Shown: positions 4,330 to 53,344 of the stretch, in pieces
How the letters are laid out: every line of letters starts with the position of its first letter
Numbering within the stretch: the first letter of the stretch is position 1
DNA from: a phage
Sequence record: PZ229304.1
Direction: 5' to 3' (one strand)
Length of the DNA: 64,000 nt
The notes under the pieces: generated by a model
Seen by the model: only the letters and a program-made list of their open reading frames with translations
Told to the model about the DNA's origin: nothing
Databases searched by the model: none
Program-made: the position numbers and the translations under genes

Positions 4330-5445
4330 GTGGCACATACATATCTAGCTGACGTAGACTTTTCGGGTAAAGCTACGGAAGATTCTTGCGGAGCACACAT
4401 TGCTTACACCTTCGATTTTCAAGGTGGTGCTGCTTCTGGCTTTAATACCCCTCTACTTTTTAAATCTGGCGACAACCCAGACATTAGCTTCACTAAGTTA
4501 GAAGCTCTAGAAAAAATGGGTGAAGACGTTACTGAATTACGTAAATCATATATGAACCAACTTATGGGATCATTATCTGATGCCGTTCGTGAAAAATACG
4601 AGTCTGGTTGGGATTGGGTTTATGTAGTCGATGCCGATTTTGATAATGGCATTGTTATTTTCTGTTCTGACTACGGAATGTTCTCTACTGATTTTACCAT
4701 TAACGGACTTCTTGTTGAAGTTGGTGATGTTGCAAAACCAGTAGTACAAACAACGGACTATGAAGTAGTAGACGGTGATGTTTTAGTTTCCCTGGATTTC
4801 TTTGATAACTTGATTGATGATGCTCTAGGTGATTTAGTTAAGAGCGCAATTAAGTTTGATCACGTAAAAGATTATTTAGTAAAAGCTCACGAAGCTCGTA
4901 CTAATAAAGACTCTGTGATTGCAGAGGATAATCCAGCAGATCTTGAATCTGCAAACACAACCGATATAAATAAAGGAGATACCCCTTTGGAAAATATTAA
5001 CAAAGAAGAATTCCTGAAATCTGCTGAGGTGCAAGACCTTATTAAAGCACAGATTGCAGAAGCGGTAGAAAAAGCTGCTGCTGAAGCTCGTGCAGAGGCA
5101 GAAGCTAAAGCACAGGAAGAAATCAACAAAGCTAAGGCAGAAGCCGAGGAACTTCGTAAAGCAGAAATTGCTCGTATCGAAGAAGACTATACCAATGTAA
5201 TTAAGTCTTATGGCTATGTTGAAGAAGACAAAGTTGAAGCACTTGTTAAATACCTAGTAGATAACAAAGAAATTGCTGAAACTGTTGTTACCGCATTTGA
5301 AAAAGCTCGCGAAGAAGTTGAAACAGTTAAGAAAGAATTTGGCAAAGAAGTAGGTGTTGATGTTGAAAACAAAGAACCTGTTGCTAAATCTGCTTCTGAA
5401 CTGATTCGTCAAAAAGCTGCTGAACTTAAAAAAGCCCAGAAATAA
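4330..5445 (+). CDS. scaffolding protein
   Basis: 371 aa; C-terminal half is Ala/Glu/Lys-rich predicted coiled coil (AEAVEKAAAEARAEAEAKAQEE...); located between portal and major capsid genes. Confidence 0.5.
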   Translation: MAHTYLADVDFSGKATEDSCGAHIAYTFDFQGGAASGFNTPLLFKSGDNPDISFTKLEALEKMGEDVTELRKSYMNQLMGSLSDAVREKYESGWDWVYVVDADFDNGIVIFCSDYGMFSTDFTINGLLVEVGDVAKPVVQTTDYEVVDGDVLVSLDFFDNLIDDALGDLVKSAIKFDHVKDYLVKAHEARTNKDSVIAEDNPADLESANTTDINKGDTPLENINKEEFLKSAEVQDLIKAQIAEAVEKAAAEARAEAEAKAQEEINKAKAEAEELRKAEIARIEEDYTNVIKSYGYVEEDKVEALVKYLVDNKEIAETVVTAFEKAREEVETVKKEFGKEVGVDVENKEPVAKSASELIRQKAAELKKAQK

Positions 5446-5463: not shown

Positions 5464-5856
5464 ATGGCAACTGGAATTTCTTTATCAAACTACCGCCAGG
5501 AATTTGGACACCTTGTTCTGGGTGGAGTATTTAGTTCTGACCTAGGTCACTGTGTTCGTGAAGTGAACCTGGTTAAAACTGCAACCATGAAAATTGGTTC
5601 TGTACTGAAAGCTGACAACACAGAAGCTACTGCTGCTGGTGAAGCTGTTAAAGTTCTGCTGTGGACTGACGCACTGTTCGGGATCGATGATGTTGCAGTA
5701 GGTGACACTTTCACCGCAGTTGTTGGTGTACGTGACCTGACTCTCAACCGCTATGCAGTTTACTACAAGAGTGGTGATCTGATTGATGACGCTGGCGTTG
5801 CAGCACTGGAAACTCACGATCTGAAACTGACTGAAAAAGTTGTTTTCACTTCTTAA
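5464..5856 (+). CDS. head decoration or minor capsid protein
   Basis: 130-aa ORF immediately upstream of the major capsid gene; shares its distinct high-expression codon usage. Confidence 0.35.
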   Translation: MATGISLSNYRQEFGHLVLGGVFSSDLGHCVREVNLVKTATMKIGSVLKADNTEATAAGEAVKVLLWTDALFGIDDVAVGDTFTAVVGVRDLTLNRYAVYYKSGDLIDDAGVAALETHDLKLTEKVVFTS

Positions 5857-5877
5857 TTTTTAATAGGAGATTTATAC

Positions 5878-6879
5878 ATGCCAGCTATTATCTTAGATCA
5901 GGTTGTTGACTTTAGCCCAATGATTGAGCTACAAGAAACTCCTGATACACTTATCGCAAGTCTGAACCTGTTTGATGTTCAGTATCATGCTACCACTGCT
6001 ATCGAAATTGGCAGACAGAAAAATGCAGATGGTCTGATCCCAGCACGTGAACGTGGTGGTGAGCGTAACTTCCTGACTATGGACGCTCCAAGCGTTAAAG
6101 TCTTCCGTATTCCGTTCTTCCCTCTGGATAAGAACATTAAGGCACAGGATATTCAATCCTTCCGTAGCTTCGCTATGGGTGGCATCAATGATAACCTGCG
6201 TACCGAAGCGGAAGTTGTTAACCGCTATATGACTCAAATCCTGCGTGATGTTGCAAAAACTAAAGAAAAAATCTTTGCAGAAGCAGTAATGGGTCGTGCA
6301 TACAATGGTGTTGGTGGTGCAGCTAACTCTGCATACAACTGGTACACCGAATGGGGTGCTACCCAGAAATCAGTATCTGTAGATTTCGCTTCTACTACTG
6401 TTTCTCCGGCTGCTACCATTGAGCAAGAAGCTCGTGCATACATCATCGATCAGAAACAAGACGGTTCTACCGCTACTCGTATCGTTGCTCTGTGCTCTCG
6501 TGAGTTCTTTGCTTCTCTGGTTAACTCTCCGTTTGTTCGCCAGGCTTATCAATACTTCCAAGGTACTCCGAACCTTCTGCGTGACCGCCTAAGCGGTAAT
6601 ATGGACGTTCAGGTATTCGAATGGAATGGTGTAACCTACATCGAAGATATCCACGGTAACATCCCTGCTGGTGAAGCGTTTGTTCTGCCAATGGGTATCC
6701 CAGATATGTTCCAGGCGCACTATGCTCCAGCGGATACTCCAGAACTGGCTAACACTGTTGCTCGTGATCTGTATACCTTTATGGTATCTGAACACCGCAC
6801 TGTACAGCTACAGTCTGAATTCTCCCTGCTGGCGGTTAACACCCGTCCAGAACTGGTAGTTAAACTGACTACTGCTTAA
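5878..6879 (+). CDS. major capsid protein
   Basis: 333-aa ORF after scaffold; strongly biased codon usage (CTG, CGT, GGT, AAC); followed by a strong intrinsic terminator. Confidence 0.65.
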   Translation: MPAIILDQVVDFSPMIELQETPDTLIASLNLFDVQYHATTAIEIGRQKNADGLIPARERGGERNFLTMDAPSVKVFRIPFFPLDKNIKAQDIQSFRSFAMGGINDNLRTEAEVVNRYMTQILRDVAKTKEKIFAEAVMGRAYNGVGGAANSAYNWYTEWGATQKSVSVDFASTTVSPAATIEQEARAYIIDQKQDGSTATRIVALCSREFFASLVNSPFVRQAYQYFQGTPNLLRDRLSGNMDVQVFEWNGVTYIEDIHGNIPAGEAFVLPMGIPDMFQAHYAPADTPELANTVARDLYTFMVSEHRTVQLQSEFSLLAVNTRPELVVKLTTA

Positions 6880-21252: not shown

Positions 21253-23412
21253 ATGAAACAGGCTATTTTTACTGTAACTCGAAATACGAGAGTAAATGCC
21301 AGTTCATTCAGCTATAAGACCGTCGATGGAACGGCGGTCGCTGGTAGAGATTATGTAGCTAAACAGGGAACAGTAACGTTCCCTTCTGATGCAGATTCTG
21401 CTACTGTAGTGGTTGATGTATATGAACGTCCGGCAAACTCTTTAGATCTTTATTTTACTCTTGAGATTACTAGCATAAGTCAAAATAACACGATGATCAA
21501 CGAAGAAATTCGTTGTGTTATTACGACTGATCAATCGAATACAACCCCGCTAACTTGGCCTGTTGTGAAGTCTAGAATGTTTGATCCTAAGTTTTGGACA
21601 ATAGATTCTCAAGCAACAGAAAGTTGTTCTATTATCTCTAATGGTGATTCTTTCACAGCAAGAATGGTTAATAGGACAGTGGCTGGTCTTGCTGGGATTA
21701 TTTGGTCAACTTACGATAAATATGATCACAAAGGATTAGGCTACCAAGAACATTCTGACTTAAGTAAAGAGAAACTTTGGTTTAAAATGGAACTTAGTCA
21801 AGGTGTTCCTGGATTAAAAGAAGAAAAATTATTGCCATCCTTAACAGTGACACTGAAGGATGAAACAGTTCATTATGTATCTCTAAACTTTTATGCAGAA
21901 GAAGTTTCAGAGGACGGTAAAACAGCAATAATCAAATTAGATTTCTCAAATTTAAAATCTGGGCCAGAAAATGATATTGTTGTTGACACTACACAGATAG
22001 ATAACATGTTCTTCTCCTTGATCTCAACGAGGTATCAAGAAATTGAAGATATTATTCCTGTGGACAATGTGGATCTTTCCTTTAAGTTTACCATACTGGA
22101 GCCTGATACTGGTTACAGTATGATGAATATGGGTAATTTAAATGTTCCAGCACACACCATAAGAATGTGTACATCTTATGATGATATGTATAACCTTACC
22201 CCAGAGCGAGTTATTTCTAACACCTATAGATTAGGTTATAGGGATATGATTAACCACTATAATGGTATGTCACATTATTATCAATTTAGTTGGGACGCTG
22301 GCTCTAATAAATGGGCTTTGAACAGAACAGAATATTTAAACCCAGCAACAGAAGCCTGGTTTGATAACTTCCACGCTAATGCAAAAGCTATGGGCTACAC
22401 AGTAATGAACTCCTTAAGTTTTGAACTTATGAGTACAGTGTGTCCTGTAGAATGGGTACAACATACTTGGAATGATGATCTGGCTGCTACAGGTTATAAG
22501 CCACCAAGTTATGTTTTATCTCCTTCAATTGATGAAGGGATGAATTATTTACAAGGTGTAATAAATAAGATAGCTTCTATATCCGCTGCTAATGATCTTC
22601 CGGTTATTATTCAGGTTGGTGAACCGTGGTGGTGGTATAACACAGCTACCAATCTACCGTGTATTTATGATTATACAACCAAAATTGCATTTAATAATGA
22701 AACTGGATTATATGCACAAGATGTTGGTACAGTTAAAAATTATAAAACTGGTACACCATATGATGAATATTATGCATTCCTCTCTAAAACATTAGGACTG
22801 CGTGTTGCTAAATTTGCAACAGATACCAGATTAGCATACCCTGGAGCGAAAGTTACATTGTTACCATTTGTACCATCCATCTTAGGTAATGGTATGATGG
22901 AGTTTGTTAACTTCCCTAAAGATTATTATATTCCAGAAAACTTTGACTTTTATTGTTCAGAATGTTATGACTGGTTGTTGGAAGGCAAGATGGAAAGATC
23001 TTTCGACGCTATCACAATACCTAATGAGCAACTAGGTTTTAGTTACGATAAGATACATTATCTTGCAGGGTTTGTTCCAGATGCAACTCTAGCACCATTA
23101 TATGGCTTTGATCCTGAATCAAACTATAGAACATATTTGTGGAAAATGATTATAGGCAATATTGTATTGAATGACCAGAAGTTTGTTGGTTTATATCAAT
23201 ACATATGGGCTTACCCACAAATAATGCATGATTCAATAACTGTTCTTAATTCAAAATCCCAAGTGTTTTATATGGGTAATGTGCCTTTGAATTGCTACTT
23301 GCAAGATATCACTCTTAAACAGGTAAATGTTGAGATTGCCACTATAAGTGGAATTACATTAGCCACTAAATCTGGAGAAGATTTAGTAACAACACAAAAA
23401 TTTTATATATAG
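21253..23412 (+). CDS. tail-associated protein with N-terminal Calx-beta-like domain
   Basis: 719 aa; N-terminus FSYKTVDGTAVAGRDYVAKQGTVTFPSDADSATVVVDV matches the Calx-beta signature (DGTA.AG.DY...G.h.F). Confidence 0.4.
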   Translation: MKQAIFTVTRNTRVNASSFSYKTVDGTAVAGRDYVAKQGTVTFPSDADSATVVVDVYERPANSLDLYFTLEITSISQNNTMINEEIRCVITTDQSNTTPLTWPVVKSRMFDPKFWTIDSQATESCSIISNGDSFTARMVNRTVAGLAGIIWSTYDKYDHKGLGYQEHSDLSKEKLWFKMELSQGVPGLKEEKLLPSLTVTLKDETVHYVSLNFYAEEVSEDGKTAIIKLDFSNLKSGPENDIVVDTTQIDNMFFSLISTRYQEIEDIIPVDNVDLSFKFTILEPDTGYSMMNMGNLNVPAHTIRMCTSYDDMYNLTPERVISNTYRLGYRDMINHYNGMSHYYQFSWDAGSNKWALNRTEYLNPATEAWFDNFHANAKAMGYTVMNSLSFELMSTVCPVEWVQHTWNDDLAATGYKPPSYVLSPSIDEGMNYLQGVINKIASISAANDLPVIIQVGEPWWWYNTATNLPCIYDYTTKIAFNNETGLYAQDVGTVKNYKTGTPYDEYYAFLSKTLGLRVAKFATDTRLAYPGAKVTLLPFVPSILGNGMMEFVNFPKDYYIPENFDFYCSECYDWLLEGKMERSFDAITIPNEQLGFSYDKIHYLAGFVPDATLAPLYGFDPESNYRTYLWKMIIGNIVLNDQKFVGLYQYIWAYPQIMHDSITVLNSKSQVFYMGNVPLNCYLQDITLKQVNVEIATISGITLATKSGEDLVTTQKFYI

Positions 23413-23420
23413 GAGTAAAA

Positions 23421-25805
23421 ATGTCAACTACAATTACTAATTTACCCGAAACATCAAAAGTTAATGGCTCTGATTACCTGGTTTTAGACCAACCTGATAA
23501 GACTGTTAAAAGCACAGTTTCCAACTTTCTTACTGACACTGGGGTGGTTTTAGCCACCCAGTTGAAAGATACAGGTGGAGCAGATTTAATACAATCCTCA
23601 AATGGTAATACTGTTCAGGAAGAGTTGAATAACAATCTTCTTAATGATCGTGAACAGTGGCGTCGTAGTCTTGCTGAAGCGGGGTTAACACTTGTTGATG
23701 GTAGCTTTGAAGAAGGCGCTACATTAAATAGTAAGACCGATGCTGTTTGGCACATTGCTGGTGGACAGTGTTATACATGGGATGGTGCTTTCCCTAAAGC
23801 TGTTCCTGCTGGGTCAACCCCAGATAGCACGGGTGAGGTTAAATTAGGGGCGTGGGTTAGCGTTGGCGATGCTTCACTAAGAACAAATCTTTCCAGTAAT
23901 AATGGTTCTTCATTGATTGGTTATAAGGATGGCACTGTATCAGACGTTCTTAAATATATAGTGACTCCTGAAATGTATGGAGCAGATCCAACAGGGGCTT
24001 CTGATAGCCTGGCAGCATTTGTTGCTGCTGAGGAAGACGCATTCAACAACGGCGGTGAACTTAAGGCCGATGGTACCTATCTTTTCAGTTCTGGCTTCAC
24101 CTGTCGTGTGCCGTTTGATTTCAGTAAGGCTACATTCCATATTTCATCCTCATGGAATGGTGCTACAAGTCGGTTTTTAGTGCACCTTACCGACCCAGGT
24201 AACACAACCGAAACACGCACGGTAACTGTTGCGACTAATGGTGTGTCTATACCCGCGCTCAGTTCTTATACGAACCACTGCGTGCATATACAGTCTGCAA
24301 CAGAGGTAGGTTATGTGCGTAGTGGGACTAATACGTATAAGCAGGAGGTATACCATATCATTAATGGTGTGGTGCAAGGCTTCCCTTCTAATATTGACTT
24401 TAGTAGTTCGTGTACAGTTAAGGCCACCCCTCTGGATGTAAACCCTATAAAGGTTTATTTACCACGTGTTGTATTTGACGCCATCCCAGCTACGCCTGTT
24501 AACCACGTATTCCGTATCGAGCGTGCTTTTGTTGATGTTATTGGCGGTTCATATAACACCCATGACCAGTCAGTATCAGCAAATCGTCAGGCGTTTAATG
24601 CATTCGTGAACCTGATGAGCACCTGTTATCGCGTCCGGGTAATAGGAGTTCAGGGATACGGATTCTTTAAGAACGCATCAGATGGATTCAGCTACACAGT
24701 TAACCTTTCTGGCTTGTACCCGGCAGCCATTGATTGCTGTGACCCGGAGAACTGGGGTCTTGTTGACGGAACTTTGTTTAAAGGCGGGCTTATTCAGCGG
24801 TGCCACGGCGCCAGAATGGGGGCGCATGAGGACGTTACTGACCTGACAATTGATGATTGCACGGCGTATACCAGGGGGTTCATGATTGGCTCCGGATACG
24901 GAACACTAACCATGCGTAACCCGGTGTTTTACATGACAACCGCGCAGAATATGCTGGAGTTCAGATATGATTACGGCAACTGCTGGAAAGGAGATATCGT
25001 AATTGAAAGTCCTACAGTTCACCTTTGCCCGAATATCCCGGCTTACACGGCGCTTGTTAAGTTCCAGGTAGCATTGTCTACCGGTATCTATCTGAGCAGC
25101 AGGGTTGTTGCGTATACTTGTAATACATTAACAATTCGCGACCCTAAAATAGTGTCACAAACGAATCAGACTAATGCTTATCAGATGTGGAACGTAGCTT
25201 CCGAATTCTCTCAACCTGTGTCTATGCCGGATAAAGTTATCATTGAAAACGTCACTACAATGGCACCAACTGCTACATACGTTAAAGTTGGCACATCCGG
25301 GGAGTATTTAAGTAGCAACTCTTTAATGATAGCCAAGACTACAGAGGTTATTGTCCGCGGCATGATTATTCACGACCCAGCCAATAATCCTCAGATTGTT
25401 TCCCGTATCGCAGATGCAAATAAAACGGGAATGCGTAACTCTTACCGATGGAGATTCAGTGATGTACGAGGTTTGGCGATAAACACCAGCTTACCTTCAG
25501 GTAACAGCATTGATATTGAGAACTCCACTATATACAGGTTAGATAACTCTTCAATACCAAGTATGACTGACCTGTCAACCATAAAGATTGATAACAGCAG
25601 CTTTACAGATACGATTCAATGCCGCACAAATGGCGGGACGATTGAGCTTTATAATTGTAAGTTTACTGTAGTTGGTGCAGTTGGATTGGGCGGCATTAAG
25701 AAAAGCATTGGCACTACGCTTCTGGCGGGAAGCACCATTACCGGACAGATTTCATTAACAGCATCATCGCTAATGTCATATAAAGATTCCACTTTATATG
25801 CGTAA
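23421..25805 (+). CDS. tailspike protein with pectate-lyase-like beta-helix domain (putative depolymerase)
   Basis: 794 aa; TPEMYGADPTGASDSLAAFVAAEED motif typical of pectate-lyase-superfamily tailspikes; central part is compositionally distinct (GC-rich); N-terminal anchor motif shared with the 32890 protein. Confidence 0.55.
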   Translation: MSTTITNLPETSKVNGSDYLVLDQPDKTVKSTVSNFLTDTGVVLATQLKDTGGADLIQSSNGNTVQEELNNNLLNDREQWRRSLAEAGLTLVDGSFEEGATLNSKTDAVWHIAGGQCYTWDGAFPKAVPAGSTPDSTGEVKLGAWVSVGDASLRTNLSSNNGSSLIGYKDGTVSDVLKYIVTPEMYGADPTGASDSLAAFVAAEEDAFNNGGELKADGTYLFSSGFTCRVPFDFSKATFHISSSWNGATSRFLVHLTDPGNTTETRTVTVATNGVSIPALSSYTNHCVHIQSATEVGYVRSGTNTYKQEVYHIINGVVQGFPSNIDFSSSCTVKATPLDVNPIKVYLPRVVFDAIPATPVNHVFRIERAFVDVIGGSYNTHDQSVSANRQAFNAFVNLMSTCYRVRVIGVQGYGFFKNASDGFSYTVNLSGLYPAAIDCCDPENWGLVDGTLFKGGLIQRCHGARMGAHEDVTDLTIDDCTAYTRGFMIGSGYGTLTMRNPVFYMTTAQNMLEFRYDYGNCWKGDIVIESPTVHLCPNIPAYTALVKFQVALSTGIYLSSRVVAYTCNTLTIRDPKIVSQTNQTNAYQMWNVASEFSQPVSMPDKVIIENVTTMAPTATYVKVGTSGEYLSSNSLMIAKTTEVIVRGMIIHDPANNPQIVSRIADANKTGMRNSYRWRFSDVRGLAINTSLPSGNSIDIENSTIYRLDNSSIPSMTDLSTIKIDNSSFTDTIQCRTNGGTIELYNCKFTVVGAVGLGGIKKSIGTTLLAGSTITGQISLTASSLMSYKDSTLYA

Positions 25806-25812
25806 TTGATAA

Positions 25813-25828
25813 CCCCGCTTCGGCGGGG
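25813..25828 (+). terminator. hairpin after tailspike gene
   Basis: CCCCGC-TTCG-GCGGGG stem-loop; weak U-tract. Confidence 0.35.
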
Positions 25829-25858
25829 CATTTAAAACTACAACATGAGGACTAACCC

Positions 25859-26164
25859 ATGAATAAGATGTTCACACAGCCCACTGGCCCAGTGGCTAAA
25901 CAGGTTAATAAACAAGCCATTGCCCGTAAGTTTGGTGTTAAGCAGAACGAAGTAGTCTACTGCGCTGTAGGTGCTGTACTAAGTGGATATAAGGTTATCT
26001 ATGATAAGGAGACGCAAAGGGCGTATTCCTTACCTGCTGATATTGCCCCAGGTACTACTGCTTTTAGTCTTAGTGCTGCTGTACTTGTGCATTCAGCGGG
26101 TTCTGTAGACCTTGGGGAATTAGCTGTATATCGTGATTTAAAAAGTAATGAGAACGCACCATGA
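25859..26164 (+). CDS. hypothetical protein
   Basis: 101-aa ORF with RBS; no motif. Confidence 0.3.
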   Translation: MNKMFTQPTGPVAKQVNKQAIARKFGVKQNEVVYCAVGAVLSGYKVIYDKETQRAYSLPADIAPGTTAFSLSAAVLVHSAGSVDLGELAVYRDLKSNENAP

Positions 26165-26406
26165 GAAAATTTTTAATAGGTATGTTTTGTACATATCCTG
26201 ATAATAAAGTCAGTTCTACTAAAGTTTGGAATGCTATTGGTATGATTGTTATGTCCAGTATGTTTATTTATTTGGGAATTGATAAAGAAATTCCTGAATG
26301 GATGGGCTGGGCTTTTGTTTTTATGATCACACCATCCAGACTAATGAAGAATTTAATAGATTTACGTTGGGGCAGATCACCTGCCCCTGATAAGGAGGAT
26401 AACTAA
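26161..26406 (+). CDS. small membrane protein (hypothetical)
   Basis: 81 aa with hydrophobic segments; overlapping stop/start with neighbours. Confidence 0.3.
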   Translation: MRKFLIGMFCTYPDNKVSSTKVWNAIGMIVMSSMFIYLGIDKEIPEWMGWAFVFMITPSRLMKNLIDLRWGRSPAPDKEDN

Positions 26407-27893
26407 TGGCAGATTATGGTTTAACAGATGCTGGTTTTGTCATTCCAACGTTTGATGATATTTTAAATAATTATATGACAGCATTGAAAAACACTTTCGG
26501 TGCAGATACAGCTACATCTGAAGATACTGTCTTTGGTCAACTGTTTCGTATTATTGCATATACAGATTACACTCTTTGGGAAGGTATGCAAGGTGTTTAC
26601 AATACCCAAACCTTAGATGGTGCAGAAGGTATTTACCTTGATGAAATTTTCTCTAAAAGAGGTTTTTATCGTAAGGCAGCTTCTGCTGGTAGTGGTTATG
26701 CTTATGTTAAATCTAACAATAAGGCAGCTTGGACTTATGAACTAAGCACCGATGTTTATTTTAATGCCGATAATGATTTGACATATTACGTCAGTGCACC
26801 AACAATGTTGAATGCTAAGATTGGAGCATATACCATTTCTAAAGCAAACGCAACAGCTTCTGGTGAAACTTCTATTACTTTCTACATTCAAAGTGCTATT
26901 GATGGTGGTCTTAACAGTAAAACACTAAGTCCTAGCAATACAAACTTTATTTTAGATCTCACGAATTTCATTAAAGCTAACGTATCAACAACAGATCGTG
27001 CTTTAGTATGGAATGATGCTAGTAATGTTTACATGGGTTATAATCCAGAAGATAATGTTAACCCAATAGGTCTAGTAACACCAGTGAAATTTTATGCATC
27101 TATTGCAATTGGTACAAAATGGAGTGAAATTCCAGTTACGTGTTCAGACGTTGGTTATAATCCAGTAGGTACAGAAAGTATCACAGGTATTTCTTCAACG
27201 TTTACAGGCTTTTTAGATACAGGTAACTTCTATCCATTCTCTCCAGGTACAGATGTTGAAACAGATGCAGAATTCCGTTCTCGTTTCAATGATAATATGG
27301 ATGAAGCTAATGCTGCTACTCGTGCTGCTATTGTTAAAGCTCTGCTACTGACAGATGGTGTGACAAAGGTTAAGATTTATGATAACCCTACACTACATGA
27401 TCAGGAACATGCTCCAGCTATGACATTCCAGACTATTGTGTATGGCGGTACAGCAGAAGAAGTTGCACAGGTTATTTATAATACTAAGCCTATTAACACC
27501 TTAACCTATGGTACAACAGCAATTACTATCGTAACAGAAGATGGCGGTCAAGAAGTAATTCGTTTTTCTCCTGGTGACAATGCTGAATATTCACTTAAAC
27601 TAGTATATCAAACTGGCAATGGTAGTGTGTTAAGTACAACAGAAAGAGAAAATATTGTTTCTGCTCTTTCAAATCTACAGGCTTATTTTGAGTTAGGGTC
27701 AACAGTAACTAACGATCAGATAAAAGGTGTAATTTATTCTGCACTTGCGTTCGGACGCTTGACTTCTCTCCGTGTTTATGTTAAACTTAATACTGAGGAT
27801 GACAGTAAATATAATGAGGGAGATATCACTCCAGCGTACAATGTTGTACCATCCTTTGACCTTGATAATATTTCCTACGAGTACGGAGTCTAA
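26406..27893 (+). CDS. baseplate protein (J / gp6-like, putative)
   Basis: 495 aa; position upstream of a gpI-like gene and tail fibre genes. Confidence 0.4.
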   Translation: MADYGLTDAGFVIPTFDDILNNYMTALKNTFGADTATSEDTVFGQLFRIIAYTDYTLWEGMQGVYNTQTLDGAEGIYLDEIFSKRGFYRKAASAGSGYAYVKSNNKAAWTYELSTDVYFNADNDLTYYVSAPTMLNAKIGAYTISKANATASGETSITFYIQSAIDGGLNSKTLSPSNTNFILDLTNFIKANVSTTDRALVWNDASNVYMGYNPEDNVNPIGLVTPVKFYASIAIGTKWSEIPVTCSDVGYNPVGTESITGISSTFTGFLDTGNFYPFSPGTDVETDAEFRSRFNDNMDEANAATRAAIVKALLLTDGVTKVKIYDNPTLHDQEHAPAMTFQTIVYGGTAEEVAQVIYNTKPINTLTYGTTAITIVTEDGGQEVIRFSPGDNAEYSLKLVYQTGNGSVLSTTERENIVSALSNLQAYFELGSTVTNDQIKGVIYSALAFGRLTSLRVYVKLNTEDDSKYNEGDITPAYNVVPSFDLDNISYEYGV

Positions 27894-32889: not shown

Positions 32890-34851
32890 GTGATTTTAAC
32901 ACGTCCAAATAGTGCCATTGCAGACATGGTAGAGTCTCGCTATAGAAAGCGTAGAAGTTTTGCAAGTGGTTTTACCTTAAGAGATGCTCGTGAAGCATTG
33001 CTCTTTGAAACTGACGGTAACTACTATCAGTGGAAAGGTTCTCTACCTAAAGTTGTACCTGCTAACTCTACTCCTACATCTACTGGAGGGATTTCAGATA
33101 CAGCTTGGAAAAATGTGGGTAATGCAGATGACATTGCTCAAATAGAATCAGAATTAGATGCTATTGAAGCTGAAATTGAAGATCTTAGAGAATCCATACC
33201 AGAAGCTGGTAAATCAGCTTACCAGATTGCCGTAGACAATGGTTTCCAAGGTACTGAGACACAGTGGTTGGCTTCTTTAAAAGGTGATCCAGGTGCTCCA
33301 TTAAAGCTACTAGGGACGCTATCTAATACCAACCAATTACCTACAACTGGAAACAATGCAGGGGATGCATGGATTGTAGGCGAGAATATGTATGCTTGGG
33401 ATGGTACTGCTTGGAGAAAAGTAAACTCACAGGGGCCAGAAGGTAAATCAGCTTATCAAGTTTGGCTTGCAGCAGGAAACCAAGGTACAGAACTAGACTA
33501 TCTTGCTGCGATTAAAGGTGATAAAGGGGAGCCTGGCCCAGAGGGGCCACAAGGTGTGCCAGGTAACAATGCTAATGGTTTTGATTACCAAGGTGCAGCT
33601 AATTCCGTTTCAGATCTTCCTTCTGCATCTCATGGAAACACATCTCAAGCATGGAGTGTTGGTACATATCTATACGTGTCAAACGGTGTAGAATGGATCA
33701 ATATGGGCGCTATAGTGGGGCCAAAAGGAGATAAAGGCGACAAAGGAGATAAGGGTAACACTGGTGATTCAGCTTATCAAGTTTGGTTAAATGCTGGTAA
33801 CGTTGGTACTATTGACGAATATATTGCCTCTCTGAAAGGAGAAAAAGGTGATAAGGGAGACAAGGGTGATCAAGGTGCGCAGGGTATACAAGGCTTGACG
33901 GGGCCAACTGGTGCAGGGTTGACCATTATTGACATTCTGACTAGCACTTCTGAACTGCCACAAACTGGGGAAGATGGTGATGGTTATCTGATCAATAGTG
34001 AACTTTGGGTCTGGTTGCAAGGAGCCACAGAGTGGACAAATGTTGGTCGTTTAGCTGGTACTCCAATCACTGCAAAAGGACACGTTGCGTCTGCAAGTGC
34101 GCTTCCTCCTACAGCCAATTACGGTGATGCTTATCTGACGGAAGATACAGGTCATCTTTACATTTACACCTATAATGAACAAACTCAAACTGCTGAATAT
34201 GTAGATATGGGTAGTTTGAAAGGTGATAAGGGTGAAAAAGGTGACGCTGGTACTAACGGTACAGACGGTGCAACTTGGATTGTTAAAACAACAGATCCAA
34301 TCTCTAGTGATGGTAAACAAGGTGATTATGCCTTTAATATCTCCACTGGCGAGGTGTTCTTAAAAACATCTGCAACTGTCTGGACTTCTCAAGGTACACT
34401 ACCTAGCATCACAGATGCACCTAGTGATGGTAAGACTTATGCTCGTAAAGATGGAGCATGGGAAGAACTCACTAGTTCTGTAGATGGTCAAGATATAGTT
34501 CCAACAAAAGTAACAACTAATTTTATAGAGGTTACAGCATATACCAACGATTCTGTTACAGGGGACTGGACACCTCCAGGAACACATAACATGAATGTGT
34601 TGAATCTTACTGGTAACTCTACTATAAAAGCATGGCCTGGTGTCGAAGATAGCACAAAACCTAAACCATTCTCTGCAATAGTTTATCTTATCCAAGATGC
34701 CACTGGAGGTCGTACTGTTACTTTAGATCCATCTTATAAAGTAATTGGTTCTAGTGATATTAATACAGATCCTAACGGAGTAACAATACTACAACTAACA
34801 TATTGTGGTGTTGGCAATTACGTGGATGCTATTGTTGCTAAACGCACATAA
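32890..34851 (+). CDS. tail fibre protein with collagen-like and phage-fibre repeats
   Basis: 653 aa; three copies of the SAYQ.AV..GFQGTE..WLASLKG repeat; collagen-like GDKGDKGDKG tracts; four copies of an LP.TG..GDAY...W.W.G..W..VG motif. Confidence 0.65.
   Translation: MILTRPNSAIADMVESRYRKRRSFASGFTLRDAREALLFETDGNYYQWKGSLPKVVPANSTPTSTGGISDTAWKNVGNADDIAQIESELDAIEAEIEDLRESIPEAGKSAYQIAVDNGFQGTETQWLASLKGDPGAPLKLLGTLSNTNQLPTTGNNAGDAWIVGENMYAWDGTAWRKVNSQGPEGKSAYQVWLAAGNQGTELDYLAAIKGDKGEPGPEGPQGVPGNNANGFDYQGAANSVSDLPSASHGNTSQAWSVGTYLYVSNGVEWINMGAIVGPKGDKGDKGDKGNTGDSAYQVWLNAGNVGTIDEYIASLKGEKGDKGDKGDQGAQGIQGLTGPTGAGLTIIDILTSTSELPQTGEDGDGYLINSELWVWLQGATEWTNVGRLAGTPITAKGHVASASALPPTANYGDAYLTEDTGHLYIYTYNEQTQTAEYVDMGSLKGDKGEKGDAGTNGTDGATWIVKTTDPISSDGKQGDYAFNISTGEVFLKTSATVWTSQGTLPSITDAPSDGKTYARKDGAWEELTSSVDGQDIVPTKVTTNFIEVTAYTNDSVTGDWTPPGTHNMNVLNLTGNSTIKAWPGVEDSTKPKPFSAIVYLIQDATGGRTVTLDPSYKVIGSSDINTDPNGVTILQLTYCGVGNYVDAIVAKRT
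33208..33850 (+). repeat. tandem coding repeats (phage tail fibre repeat interleaved with collagen-like Gly-X-Y triplets)
   Basis: Three DNA-level copies at about 33208-33296, 33441-33528 and 33763-33850; copies 2 and 3 share the identical core TCAGCTTATCAAGTTTGG. Confidence 0.6.
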
Positions 34852-51816: not shown

Positions 51817-51843
51817 TGTTTTCTCCTCTTTTATTTCAAATAT

Positions 51844-51859
51844 GCGCCCCGAAGGGCGC
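51844..51859 (-). terminator. hairpin downstream of TerD-like gene
   Basis: GCGCCC-CGAA-GGGCGC stem-loop with AT-rich flanks. Confidence 0.35.
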
Positions 51860-51880
51860 TATGATTTATTACTTGACGTA

Positions 51881-52477
51881 TTACTCGAACCAATCGTCGC
51901 CAGCGCCAAACGCTTTAACTACATCGTAAATGTCAAGCCCAGCTTTACCTACACCATATGCTTTCAGTTTCCATTCGCTATCTTCTCGCACCAGGGAGGC
52001 AACGTGGCAAATGGTGTTACCTGCAAGTTCTGGAGCCAAGAAGTCAAAGTCCAGCAGTTCAACATTACGTTCATCATCGAAGATTTTAAGGAAACCTTCG
52101 GTAGCGTGACCAAGGCGTTTCTTACCCGTTTCGTCATCAATAGTAATTACGAATGCAATTTCCTGTGCTTCAGCAGAGATATTATCCAGTGTAACATCAA
52201 TCTGCTCCATCTGTCCTACACCATCACGAACATCTTCACCTGCAAAAGTAGAACGTTCAGGATCAAATTTCTGCGCGTAGCACACCAGGTGACGAGGAGA
52301 CAACAGTTCCGGCAGACCAGATGCATTGTGTCGGCAAATCAGAGCACTAACATCCAGATCCAGTTTTTCGTTAGATTTCCAAGAGAATTCCAGACGAATG
52401 CGTTTCAGTGCTGGTGCGATCTTTTTCAGAGAAACTTTTTCGCTAGAACCTTTTTTCAGGGAAATTTTCTGAGTCAT
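51881..52477 (-). CDS. terD: TerD-family protein (tellurite-resistance / stress-response family)
   Basis: 198 aa; N-terminal MTQKISLKKGSSEKVSLKK is the typical TerD start; acidic Ca-binding-like segments (FAGEDVRDG, ITIDDETG). Confidence 0.6.
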   Translation of the reverse strand: MTQKISLKKGSSEKVSLKKIAPALKRIRLEFSWKSNEKLDLDVSALICRHNASGLPELLSPRHLVCYAQKFDPERSTFAGEDVRDGVGQMEQIDVTLDNISAEAQEIAFVITIDDETGKKRLGHATEGFLKIFDDERNVELLDFDFLAPELAGNTICHVASLVREDSEWKLKAYGVGKAGLDIYDVVKAFGAGDDWFE

Positions 52478-52549
52478 AATTTATTATCTCCTTTGTTGTT
52501 AATTTACGTTGTCTATTTTACTAATCTTTTCTACAAAGTCAAGCGTTTT

Positions 52550-53344
52550 TTACGCTTTTGCTCCGAATTTTTTAACCCACTCACCAAACTCTTCGGATAG
52601 CAGTTTATCGTAAAGTTCTTCGTCAGACAAGGACAAATCTGCAATACCGATAAAATCAACATTATCGTATTCTTTTGCCAAGTCTTTCAAGAATTTAAAG
52701 TTTGCATTACCTACACCAACCATAAACCAGTAAACAGGAGTGTTGCGGTGTTTGTTCAGCAAACTACGTACTGCTGAAGTATCCATGTTCTCCCCGTCAG
52801 TTTGGAAGAAAATCATTGCAGGAGTACGATCAACTTGTGCATCAGTATCTACAACCTGCTCTACAACAGTACGTGTTACTTCTACAAGTTCTTTTTTACC
52901 AGTTAGTTTAGCAAGGAAACCTTTAGCCGGAACTTCTTCATACTCAACGACTTCGCGTGTAATATTTTTCATAGGTACACTACCGAAGTATGTATCATAG
53001 ATCTCTTGCATTACTGGAGCATAGGCTGTACCACCGTTGATGCAAACATTAGACATGCAAGAGCCGACATAATCATCATACACATCAGCCGTTGCAGGAG
53101 GCAGTTCAAAAGAAGAACTATTGAAAGCCCACATGTCAATCTGTGCATTATCATCAAACTTCATACCAAACGGCAGCAGTTTACCTACAAAATCACTAAC
53201 AGTGCCATCACGATATAGCTCACACATACTACCCGAAATATCTAAGGCGCTACCGACACGAAGAACAACATCGTTAATCTTTTTCTTACGCAGAGATACA
53301 GTAAGAGTTTCTTGACGTTTTTTAAGACTGATTTTATTGGACAT
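52550..53344 (-). CDS. vWA-domain protein with TerD-like N-terminal tag (TerY-like)
   Basis: 264 aa; N-terminal SNKISLKK; MIDAS-like LDISGSM and downstream TDGEN motifs. Confidence 0.55.
   Translation of the reverse strand: MSNKISLKKRQETLTVSLRKKKINDVVLRVGSALDISGSMCELYRDGTVSDFVGKLLPFGMKFDDNAQIDMWAFNSSSFELPPATADVYDDYVGSCMSNVCINGGTAYAPVMQEIYDTYFGSVPMKNITREVVEYEEVPAKGFLAKLTGKKELVEVTRTVVEQVVDTDAQVDRTPAMIFFQTDGENMDTSAVRSLLNKHRNTPVYWFMVGVGNANFKFLKDLAKEYDNVDFIGIADLSLSDEELYDKLLSEEFGEWVKKFGAKA

Follow-up and report, generated by a model that had tools for sequence, protein, structure and literature searches.

The tailspike gene and its borders

The window analysed here, i.e., the whole 64,000-nucleotide stretch of record PZ229304.1, belongs to a phi92-like myophage (Justusliebigvirus), with a GC content averaging 0.381 over the whole stretch. 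Several tail spikes or fibres are co-encoded in it, and one among them, the gene at 23421-25805, had been called a tailspike in an initial annotation made from the sequence alone. Our analysis supported this assignment. The genes on either side of the slot share 97-98% identity with PaulScherrer, phi92, alia and others, and synteny is kept: the tailspike lies between a gp142 homologue, which by its Pfam matches is non-contractile tail sheath-like and contains a TIM barrel, and homologues of the gp144 membrane protein and the gp145 baseplate wedge. The features of the locus are collected in Table 1.

Table 1. Features of the tailspike locus (positions in the window)
Feature	Position	Strand	Description
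Tract near-identical to contig L010	22987..26061	+	3 mismatches in 3075 nt; flanks differ by ~2%
Tailspike gene, 794 aa	23421..25805	+	phi92 gp143 (endosialidase) slot of the phi92-like tail-fibre cluster; from the ORF, its flanks and what is annotated at the syntenic place in phi92
N-terminal anchor, aa 1 to ~50	23421..23572	+	genus-wide, common even to phi92 gp143 and alia
XD2-like domain (Pfam Tail_spike_N, PF18668), aa ~91-167	23691..23921	+	Pfam and PDB matches
Conserved left recombination arm, 3' part of XD2	23778..23875	+	RBP2 of the G7C-like contig L005 matches at 85.7% in DNA
Left junction of the swapped body	23872..23911	+	end of DNA matches to phi92-like phages
Swapped receptor-binding/enzymatic body, aa ~164-794	23911..25805	+	right-handed parallel beta-helix, presumed polysaccharide depolymerase
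Maximum-likelihood GC3-elevated tract	24036..26023	+	GC3 0.448 inside, 0.259 outside
GC3 peak, codons 400-550	24620..25070	+	GC3 0.56-0.60 (sliding GC3 profile)
Stem-loop CCCCGC-TTCG-GCGGGG	25813..25828	+	terminator-like; eight bases past the stop codon, at the right junction of the cassette
Orphan XD1 ORF, 101 aa	25859..26164	+	equivalent to the first (XD1) domain of Kuttervirus/Gamaleyavirus tailspikes

The tailspike is a three-part chimera, composed of a genus anchor, an XD2/Tail_spike_N domain and a beta-helix body. The anchor protein is 94-96% identical to phi92 over aa 1-54 and to alia over aa 1-45, and aa 1-166 are 84-92% identical to KKE7M, PaulScherrer and ECGD1. DNA homology to phi92 breaks off at 23572. 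The XD2 domain matched PF18668 over aa 93-150 (E = 1e-20), and aa 75-169 matched PDB chains of CBA120 TSP1/3/4 and G7C gp63.1 (E = 1e-6 to 3e-18) as well as K64-ORF41. DNA matches to phi92-like phages end at nucleotides 452-491 of the gene, and identity to PaulScherrer falls from 97% to 70% across 23700-23900. As the initial annotation had envisaged, anchor and body differ in their relatives: the anchor DNA is 86-98% identical to phi92-like phages, whereas the body DNA (23930-25790) found no match by blastn in 50,697 phage records. Likewise, in a comparison with nine slot genes drawn from eight phi92-like relatives, the common N-terminal part ends at aa 45-203 and the bodies at this same slot are unrelated.

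The body itself had no match in Pfam or NCBIfam, Pfam seeing only the N-terminal Tail_spike_N domain, and it did not match the curated beta-helix family PF12708 (Pect-lyase_RHGA_epim), the first 50 positions of which were matched, in some cases below the cut-off, by the distant relatives P0011, P0014 and P0020. A PDB-sequence profile search with the body yielded alginate epimerases at best (E = 0.55, N-terminal cap only), and in PHROGs a single, uninformative family, phrog_16586, spans it. In the predicted structure, a monomer modelled with moderate confidence (pLDDT 72.8) from a six-sequence alignment, from which neither hydrolase versus lyase nor the substrate can be read, the body adopts a right-handed parallel beta-helix. 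The spike most likely binds and cleaves, as a trimer, a surface polysaccharide of an Enterobacteriaceae host, and we favour the O-antigen over the capsule as its putative target. An endosialidase-type spike was ruled out, since the fold is a beta-helix and not a propeller and homology to phi92 gp143 stops at aa 54; Pfam detected neither an endosialidase domain nor a C-terminal intramolecular chaperone domain.

To the right of the gene, the exact hairpin 16-mer (chance expectation in the window, 0.01) also lies 3' of the slot gene in PaulScherrer, ECGD1, PHB05 and L010, the last being a second phi92-like metagenomic phage contig, and in almost every allele and homologue an analogous hairpin stands in this place. 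The hairpin was missed by a consensus terminator scan, its T-run being weak, and was recognised by reading the sequence. Homology to PaulScherrer picks up again at 25811, and DNA identity to phi92-like phages resumes at 25805-25907 (for phi92, at 26166). Past the hairpin stands the orphan XD1 ORF, which in phmmer searches matched G7C gp63.1 (4QNL aa 1-94, E = 4e-33) and CBA120 TSP1 (4OJ5 aa 1-95, E = 6e-33), with E = 4e-33 to 4e-22 against the XD1 domains of Kuttervirus/Gamaleyavirus tailspikes, and which shares 68% identity with the beginning of L005 RBP2. Among phi92-like phages this ORF is full length, internally deleted (49 aa), reduced to a 25-aa remnant or absent, and in KKE7M it is chimeric. 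The orphan XD1 ORF is a relic of a second tailspike gene, serving as the right homology arm. A role as an essential adaptor was rejected, as the in-frame internal deletion, the remnant state and the absence in close relatives favour a relic.

Base composition and codon usage of the body

Measured in 300-nt windows, GC content lies between 0.31 and 0.37 upstream (21350-23599), rises to 0.40-0.52 over 23450-26149 and reaches its maximum, 0.50-0.52, at 24650-25099. The whole-gene GC3 (0.403) is the highest of the 62 ORFs in the window, and that of the body (aa 164-794) is 0.434, as against 0.264 pooled over the 61 other genes (binomial p = 2e-20) and 0.352 in the highest background stretch of 631 codons. 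This confirmed the GC-richer tailspike centre described in the initial annotation, and its remark that CCG, GCG, CGG and GGC codons are rare elsewhere held as well: per 1000 codons they number 11.1, 17.4, 4.8 and 25.4 in the body versus 2.9, 4.3, 0.3 and 6.7 in the background, i.e., they are 4- to 15-fold commoner. The deviation was significant both in synonymous usage (chi-square 253, 41 df, p = 2e-32) and in a change-point scan of eight in-frame genes (log-likelihood ratio (LLR) of the GC3-elevated tract 43.5, versus 13.9 for the largest of 100 shuffles). The N-terminal 163 codons (GC3 0.28), the anchor among them, are backbone-like.

As to the extent of the island, placed by the initial annotation at 23950-25300, the island proved real, but its right limit did not hold: the synonymous-site signal runs about 500-700 nt further, past the end of the gene into the small ORF that follows. 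On the left, the imported part begins GC3-low (~0.20 over its first ~35 codons, aa 164-200). The borders of a compositional island thus need not match those of homology.

Could the GC rise have come about with no transfer at all, from amino-acid composition or from translational selection acting on a structural gene with high expression? Part of the profile does behave in this way, as the total-GC bump at 23600-23900, a stretch within the conserved Tail_spike_N domain, reflects which amino acids are encoded (high GC1 and GC2, with a GC3 of only 0.28), and the major capsid gene, whose codon bias is strong, also has a raised GC3 (0.39). However, the body signal resides at synonymous sites, and it consists of an excess of G-ending and CpG-containing codons (CCG, GCG, CGG, ACG), with a CpG observed/expected ratio of 0.94 versus 0.67. 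The capsid codon model was the worst of four for the body (-1.97 bits per codon), its codon bias being unlike the translational-selection bias of the capsid gene, and on these codon-model likelihoods translational selection was rejected as the cause. Moreover, five other tail-fibre genes, with similar expected expression, are backbone-like (GC3 0.24-0.27), the endosialidase body of phi92 at the same slot has a GC3 of 0.22, and the homology data independently reveal the chimera. We therefore regard an origin without transfer as exceedingly improbable.

The codon choices of the body match models of 45-52% GC phages better than the resident backbone model, the opposite of the preference seen for the N-terminus and the other tail genes, for which the resident backbone was favoured. 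The GC3 peak falls on the core that is best conserved in the body family, comprising the GARMGAHEDVTDLT, YTRGFMIGSGYG and EFRYDY blocks, and this core is probably the active-site region; invariant acidic and histidine columns of the family alignment (H469-E470-D471, D441, D449 and E513 among them) are candidate residues. Over the same stretch the protein is 86-96% identical to the relatives L005 and L019, with third positions randomised.

Relatives of the body and its likely origin

Body relatives, 47-79% identical in protein sequence, form only 7 clusters in 5.8 billion proteins, and in the family alignment the body is conserved while the N-termini, i.e., the anchors, are unrelated. They include RBP1 of the G7C-like Gamaleyavirus L005, a homologue in an ECBP5/PP99-like T7-type podovirus (L001), one in a Kagunavirus-like siphovirus (L019) and the copies of temperate podoviruses or E. 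coli prophages (L006, L009, L017 and L020), so that the family is common to myo-, podo- and siphoviruses and E. coli prophages. Further searches found little. Single-protein pattern and tblastn scans of IMG/VR and GTDB representatives gave no relative, nor did family-alignment scans of IMG/VR and GTDB (185,579 species-representative genomes); a family-alignment scan of JGI/ENA metagenomes gave one, at 47%. In none of the collections searched was there a near-identical copy or a donor outside the phi92-like phages, and the actual donor lineage is absent from the sampled sequences.

These searches bear on the source that the initial annotation had suggested first, the host chromosome. Direct recent capture from a bacterial chromosome or a resident prophage tailspike during infection would be in keeping with the family's members in E. 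coli assemblies, which are prophage tailspikes adjoining O-antigen-type (OafA-like) acyltransferases, with one copy located next to the bio operon, and with codons 401-560, for which the best-fitting codon model was that of a 52% GC temperate phage. Yet the bacterial copies are prophage tailspikes only, are 47-50% identical and are themselves GC-poor relative to the host (0.42-0.45); the closer relatives, at 69-79%, all come from virulent-type phage contexts. Among 5,426 complete E. coli genomes, blastn with 23920-26170 found two weak matches, of 146 nt at 72%, each within a tailspike gene of a prophage, and the GTDB scan, as noted, was empty. The chromosome as source thus found no support, and we consider host capture very unlikely.

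The suggestion of a higher-GC source has to be qualified. It agrees with the codon fit to 45-52% GC phages, but the family has a GC content of 0.41-0.46 in every context sampled, on backbones ranging from 38% to 52%, so that it is AT-poor beside the backbone of this phage and AT-rich beside carriers of 45-52% GC. Import from a GC-richer phage is not directly shown, because the two closest full-length relatives, despite their GC-richer backbones, have a lower GC3 (0.32-0.34) than the 0.43 found here.

Recency, also claimed in the initial annotation, was not borne out with regard to an outside donor. The closest relatives anywhere share 69-79% of the protein and ~68% of the DNA, and at identical amino acids their third positions match only 0.3-0.5 of the time; synonymous sites are therefore saturated, and for this reason a recent outside donor is not demonstrable. 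Such saturation towards every known relative would also suit an allele that the phi92-like lineage acquired in ancient times, its odd composition kept by gene conversion with co-infecting phages or by weak mutational pressure, with a GC island silent on recency. The narrow range of the family's GC across all backbones, which suggests an equilibrium of shuttling, and a 150-nt patch (24471-24620) that is 88% identical to the G7C-like copy, with a third-position identity of 0.72, which hints at patchy conversion, point the same way. Long residence is nevertheless unlikely in our estimation, given that the allele is missing from all 178 phi92-like GenBank records that match the flanks and was found in two near-identical metagenomic contexts only. 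Body GC3 is at or above that of the flanks (0.26-0.41 versus 0.20-0.27) in eight of the nine slot genes, and is 0.31-0.41 in seven of them; that the other slot bodies span 0.22-0.41 is consistent with differing residence times.

Within the genus, the picture is sharper. Over the tract near-identical to L010, 60 mismatches would be expected, and the Poisson probability of three or fewer is 3e-22. This tract marks a recent event in which homologous recombination carried the entire cassette between members of the genus.

The chimeric architecture, the compositional break, the spread of the family across phage types, the breakpoints and the low-divergence tract within the genus are all observed features of this locus. 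Alongside them, we consider it highly probable that the GC-rich segment is an exchangeable receptor-binding/depolymerase module in the hypervariable gp143 slot, installed by recombination from unrelated phages, a reading in which we infer the enzymatic activity and the substrate as well as the direction and date of the first acquisition. The genus-specific anchor (aa 1 to ~90) would dock the spike to the baseplate, XD2/Tail_spike_N would be a widely shared middle part, and the body would come from a rare family circulating among unrelated enterobacterial phages. The left crossover would fall at the conserved end of XD2 (23872-23911) and the right one at the post-stop hairpin or the orphan XD1 relic (25811-26062). 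If the body spent its history mostly in, or shuttling among, genomes of 44-52% GC, the GC3 island would exist because its synonymous sites are not yet in balance with a backbone of 38% GC. The assembled cassette would have moved later, very recently, between phi92-like lineages via homologous recombination in the flanks, and the spike would add one host glycotype to a multivalent adsorption apparatus.

Of note, body and XD1 regions are collinear with L005 at 68%. Their joint arrival from a G7C-like phage was rejected, as in PaulScherrer this XD1 variant (96.7%) accompanies a body that is unrelated, from which it follows that body and XD1 have separate histories. The decaying relic offers a concrete, testable picture of the right-hand crossover. 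More speculatively, and with considerable doubt on our part, the XD1 ORF and XD2 may form a maintained, two-armed landing pad, XD1 being kept as it raises the rate of host-range switching. Both arms copy the N-terminal module of Kuttervirus/Gamaleyavirus tailspikes, the genes of which stand in tandem in those phages (body, hairpin, then the XD1-XD2 of the next gene), so that crossovers in XD2 and in the hairpin/XD1 could lift a body from the array and insert it in frame in the phi92-like slot. If so, XD1 would be no debris but a gene fragment domesticated as a substrate for recombination; a further speculative option is that the ORF still yields a small protein, which would dock one more spike.

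Comparison with known systems

The protein in the same genomic slot, phi92 gp143 (endoN92), shares the first 54 aa at 94% identity, and beyond them homology is gone. The spike described here has an XD2/Tail_spike_N domain, which phi92 gp143 does not, and carries a beta-helix body in place of the endosialidase and C-terminal intramolecular chaperone domains; the body of gp143 is compositionally native, whereas this one is not. As in CBA120 TSP1/3/4 and G7C gp63.1 (PDB 4OJ5, 5W6F, 5W6H, 4QNL), XD2 precedes the body. In those spikes, however, a single polypeptide begins with XD1 and, contiguous with it, XD2, whereas here XD2 stands behind a phi92-type anchor and XD1 is a separate, truncated ORF downstream that is decaying in relatives. 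Compared with the tailspike K64-ORF41 of Klebsiella phage K64-1 (PDB 8X8M) and further beta-helix depolymerases acting on capsule or O-antigen (LKA1 gp49, the K1 lyase and the HK620 tailspike), the body is only 14-16% identical, with no detectable sequence homology; substrate and catalytic residues are not transferable from them.

Module swapping is a well-documented route of host-range change in such phages, and the present case adds one more instance of a common process. An analysis of 136 receptor-binding proteins describes, in the passages compared here, the exchange of receptor-binding domains across Gamaleya-, Kaguna-, Kutter-, Justusliebig- and other viruses, with conserved motifs at the anchor's end and in the downstream terminator (Pas, Latka, Fieseler and Briers 2023, Virol J 20:174, PMC10408124). 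Cross-genus tailspike swaps, phi92-like phages included, and their junction motifs were thus already known, and the conceptual gain is small. In line with these passages, Justusliebig-, Gamaleya- and Kagunaviruses and temperate podovirus prophages are involved here too, the anchor is genus-conserved, the receptor-binding domain is swapped, and a conserved anchor-end stretch and a downstream terminator-like one lie at the borders of the cassette. These borders (23778-23875 and 25813-25828) fit the motifs described there by position, as distinct from a base-by-base comparison, the hairpin corresponding in position to 'motif three'. Beside what those passages describe, we report the orphan XD1 ORF in the role of a coding right arm. 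GC content has no occurrence in the text of that study. The present case shows that GC at third positions can reveal receptor-binding domains imported into phages rich in AT. Because the body DNA is unmatched in the 50,697 phage records, its subtype probably lies outside the 136 proteins. What the present locus adds to those known exchanges is the module itself, a rare, uncharacterised beta-helix family whose unassigned specificity is relevant to phage therapy and receptor prediction.

Composition of the tailspike gene

Against a window mean of 38.1%, GC content (300-nt windows) rose from 0.31-0.37 upstream at 21350-23599 to 0.40-0.52 at 23450-26149, with a maximum at 24650-25099, and returned to 0.35-0.37 beyond 26150. 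At third codon positions (GC3), the tailspike scored highest among 62 ORFs (0.403; mean 0.269, SD 0.048). Its codons 1-163 could not be distinguished from the backbone (GC3 0.28, p = 0.33), and codons 164-794, i.e., the body, reached 0.434 (binomial p = 2e-20), with background stretches of 631 codons attaining at most 0.352. Synonymous usage in the body differed from the background (chi-square 253 on 41 df), its observed/expected CpG was 0.94 vs 0.67 for the window, and the CCG, GCG, CGG and GGC codons that the initial annotation had described as enriched were indeed 3.8- to 15-fold commoner there. The GC bump at 23600-23900 combined high GC1 and GC2 (0.54-0.62) with a GC3 of 0.22-0.34, thus reflecting the amino-acid composition of the conserved Tail_spike_N domain.

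A maximum-likelihood change-point scan of third positions across eight consecutive genes delimited a GC3-high tract (0.448, vs 0.259 outside; LLR 43.5 vs 13.9 for the largest of 100 shuffles). The initial annotation, which had set the segment at 23950-25300, therefore placed its start about right but its end too early, as the tract continues through the stop codon into the small ORF that follows. The predicted deviation from other structural genes was also found, the five other large tail-fibre genes being compositionally native (GC3 0.24-0.27).

Elsewhere in the window, two adjacent head-region genes (130 and 333 aa) form a second GC-rich island (GC 0.45-0.46), which is probably due to translational selection and not to transfer; the 333-aa gene, presumably encoding the major capsid protein, has a GC3 of 0.39, and no other gene of the window is as biased in codon usage (chi-square 577 per 1000 codons). 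Long ORFs overlapping on opposite strands (252 aa on plus, 198 aa on minus, the latter with a GC3 of 0.37) lie in a locally GC-rich spot (GC 0.446). A second protein bears a Tail_spike_N (XD2-like) domain (aa 11-77), behind which lie a collagen triple-helix repeat and a fibritin C-terminal match; its gene has a backbone-like GC3 (0.245), although total GC is 0.42.

A chimeric gene in a variable slot

Using megablast, 178 phage records matched 21253-27893, the best of them (PaulScherrer, KKE7M, PD114, phi92 and alia, i.e., Justusliebigvirus and related Stephanstirmvirinae) at 97-98% identity yet with a query coverage of only 61-71%, the uncovered portion being the tailspike body. The syntenic phi92 gene, gp143, encodes the endosialidase tailspike and is flanked by gp142 on one side and by gp144 (membrane protein) and gp145 (baseplate wedge) on the other; PaulScherrer shows an identical layout, its slot encoding a 624-aa 'lateral tail fiber with hydrolase domains'. 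Only over its first 170-491 nt did the tailspike gene resemble phi92-like phages in DNA (86-98% identity). Compared with PaulScherrer, identity was 96-100% up to ~23700, then 88, 80, 70 and 78% across 23700-23899 and random thereafter, restarting at 25811 (98%); similarity to phi92 stopped at 23572 and restarted at 26166.

Among 50,697 phage records, none matched the body alone (23930-25790) by blastn, and its top tblastn match in the phage collection was a Vibrio phage 'pectate lyase superfamily protein' (26.5% identity). Nine slot genes from eight phi92-like relatives had aa 1-45 up to 1-203 in common with the window tailspike and unrelated bodies. Body GC3 in these relatives ranged from 0.22 (phi92 endosialidase) to 0.41, with flanks at 0.20-0.27, and the window allele (0.43) was the most extreme among the slot alleles compared. 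Both the contrast between anchor and body and the comparison of alleles agree with the initial annotation's reading of the body as foreign, which is sound on codon and homology evidence. We conclude that the body is a horizontally exchanged receptor-binding domain.

The domain at the left junction matches CBA120 TSP1/3/4, G7C gp63.1 and K64-ORF41 in the PDB. On the right, the 16-mer of the post-tailspike hairpin recurs identically after the slot gene in PaulScherrer, the second phi92-like contig (L010), ECGD1 and PHB05, which is not expected by chance, and hairpins of an analogous kind trail nearly all slot alleles and homologues. A hairpin one base different, CCTCGCTTCGGCGGGG, directly follows ORF 12260-14239, so this terminator-like stem-loop seems to recur in a further place within the structural module. 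In PHB05 (L014), the 16-mer occurs twice (5289-5304 and 5879-5894, ~590 nt apart, with two small hypothetical ORFs between), a pair that may mark where a cassette was once inserted.

The small ORF beyond the hairpin ends a few codons past the end of its XD1 domain. The window, PaulScherrer and KKE7M have it at full length; ECGD1, KMB37 and alia carry a 49-aa version with an in-frame internal deletion, AV123 retains a 25-aa remnant, and phi92 and PHB05 lack it. The KKE7M copy is of CBA120/G7C type in its first half and of phi92-like type in its second, a crossover frozen within the ORF, and many relatives regain similarity to the window only at 25907, inside it. Given these variable forms, the chimera and the restart point, we read the ORF as the relic of a tailspike gene of Kutter- or Gamaleyavirus type that stood in tandem, serving as right homology arm. 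In GenBank it is annotated as 'tailspike protein' or 'hypothetical protein'.

Features of the tailspike cassette and other segments of the window
Feature	Coordinates	Strand	Description
Head-region genes	5464-6879	+	second GC-rich island
Variant hairpin	14249-14264	+	one base different
Tailspike gene	23421-25805	+	794 aa
XD2 segment	23778-23875		85.7% identity to XD2 region of RBP2 in G7C-like contig
Left junction	23872-23911		immediately 3' of XD2 segment
GC3-high tract	24036-26023		change-point scan
Patch	24471-24620		aa 351-400
Hairpin	25813-25828		CCCCGC-TTCG-GCGGGG, eight bases past tailspike stop codon
XD1 ORF	25859-26164	+	stand-alone, 101 aa; XD1 of G7C gp63.1 (4QNL, E = 4e-33), CBA120 TSP1 (4OJ5, E = 6e-33)
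Second Tail_spike_N gene	32890-34851	+	XD2-like domain
Overlapping ORFs	51842-52600	+/-	GC-rich spot

Relatives, source and timing

The body family is rare: a set of 5.8 billion proteins gave 7 clusters, and one of 1.84 billion gave 14 representatives at E < 1e-30. The window's own allele recurs (P0001) in L010, a 140-kb metagenomic contig. P0002 (73% identity, 1030 aa) lies on a contig matching G7C, PhAPEC7 and St11Ph5, i.e., N4-like Gamaleyavirus, where a second tailspike gene comes next; P0003 (69%, 643 aa, N-terminal anchor almost missing) belongs to a T7-type podovirus of 43.7 kb that is related to ECBP5 and PP99, and P0005 (79% over the first half) to a Kagunavirus-like siphovirus fragment. 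Four members show 47-50% identity: P0004, on a 35-kb podovirus-like contig with nozzle, terminase, holin and lysozyme genes; P0007, adjoining the bioABFCD operon in an E. coli assembly; P0006; and L020. Each adjoins an Acyl_transf_3 acyltransferase (some with SGNH) of O-antigen-modifying type, making an O-antigen, by inference, the most likely receptor type. The alignment comprises a single conserved body, from 'VTPEMYGA' to the C-terminal 'SYKDSxLYA', behind unrelated N-termini, the classic modular pattern. The copy adjoining bioABFCD, a distant member (48% identity) in E. coli assembly GCA_039031335.1 (L017, 1-9833), sits at the contig end, directly next to the operon and beside a 640-aa Acyl_transf_3+SGNH acyltransferase (GC 0.35); here a prophage carrying a seroconversion gene probably ends, having integrated close to the lambda-type attachment region.

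In bits per codon, the body fitted models of a 45.5% GC podovirus (-1.716) and a 52% GC temperate-type phage (-1.729) better than the resident backbone (-1.804), the 52% model being clearly best over codons 401-560 (-1.636 vs -1.966). For the body, the capsid (translational-selection) model was the poorest. The N-terminus and other tail genes favoured the resident model by 0.12-0.41 bits, varying with gene and alternative model. Together with CpG, these fits support a history of the body outside the AT-rich backbone.

No donor was found in the searched collections. The initial annotation had suggested a higher-GC source such as the host chromosome; the latter is not the source, 23920-26170 yielding just two 146-nt blastn matches (72%) in 5,426 complete E. 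coli genomes. Nor is a higher-GC origin demonstrated, since the family gene has a GC of 0.41-0.46 in every carrier: 0.406 against 0.455 for backbone or neighbouring sequence in the ECBP5-like podovirus, 0.421 against 0.439 in the G7C-like contig, 0.446 against 0.522 in podovirus-like contig L006, 0.425 against 0.557 in the E. coli prophage beside the bio genes, and 0.463 against 0.507 in the Kagunavirus-like fragment. The module thus seems GC-poor in GC-richer carriers and GC-rich in the window.

The acquisition had also been called recent, which is not demonstrated for import from outside: the closest copies share ~68% DNA identity with the body, and third positions at identical amino acids agree at 0.3-0.5 even where protein identity is 90-96%, indicating saturated synonymous divergence in a core under strong purifying selection. 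One 150-nt patch, 88% identical in DNA to the homologue on the G7C-like contig (L005) with a third-position identity of 0.72 vs ~0.3-0.5 elsewhere in the gene, may be a small gene-conversion patch within the otherwise saturated alignment. Spread within the genus is the part for which recency does hold. Relative to L010, the window has 104 mismatches over 5,310 flanking positions (2.0%) but only 3 over the 3,075 positions of 22987-26061 (Poisson probability 3e-22), so two phi92-like lineages have very recently exchanged the whole cassette, or it has swept from one to the other. With it went ~430 nt of the upstream gene and ~250 nt downstream, by way of homologous recombination in the conserved flanks.

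Comparison with published receptor-binding-domain exchange

Pas et al. 2023 (PMC10408124) describe receptor-binding domains swapped across Gamaleya-, Kaguna-, Kayfuna-, Kutter-, Justusliebig-, Nouzilly-, Lederberg- and Uetakeviruses, with a conserved motif of 44/95 nt where the anchor ends and, downstream, a terminator-like one of 20 nt, both proposed as recombination hotspots; the article's text does not mention GC content. The article covers exactly the process that we infer for the window tailspike, and the sole element that might extend published knowledge is the possible maintenance of the XD1 relic as a recombination arm. The body represents a receptor-binding subtype that is new and uncharacterised, in a hypervariable slot already known and exchanged by a known mechanism.
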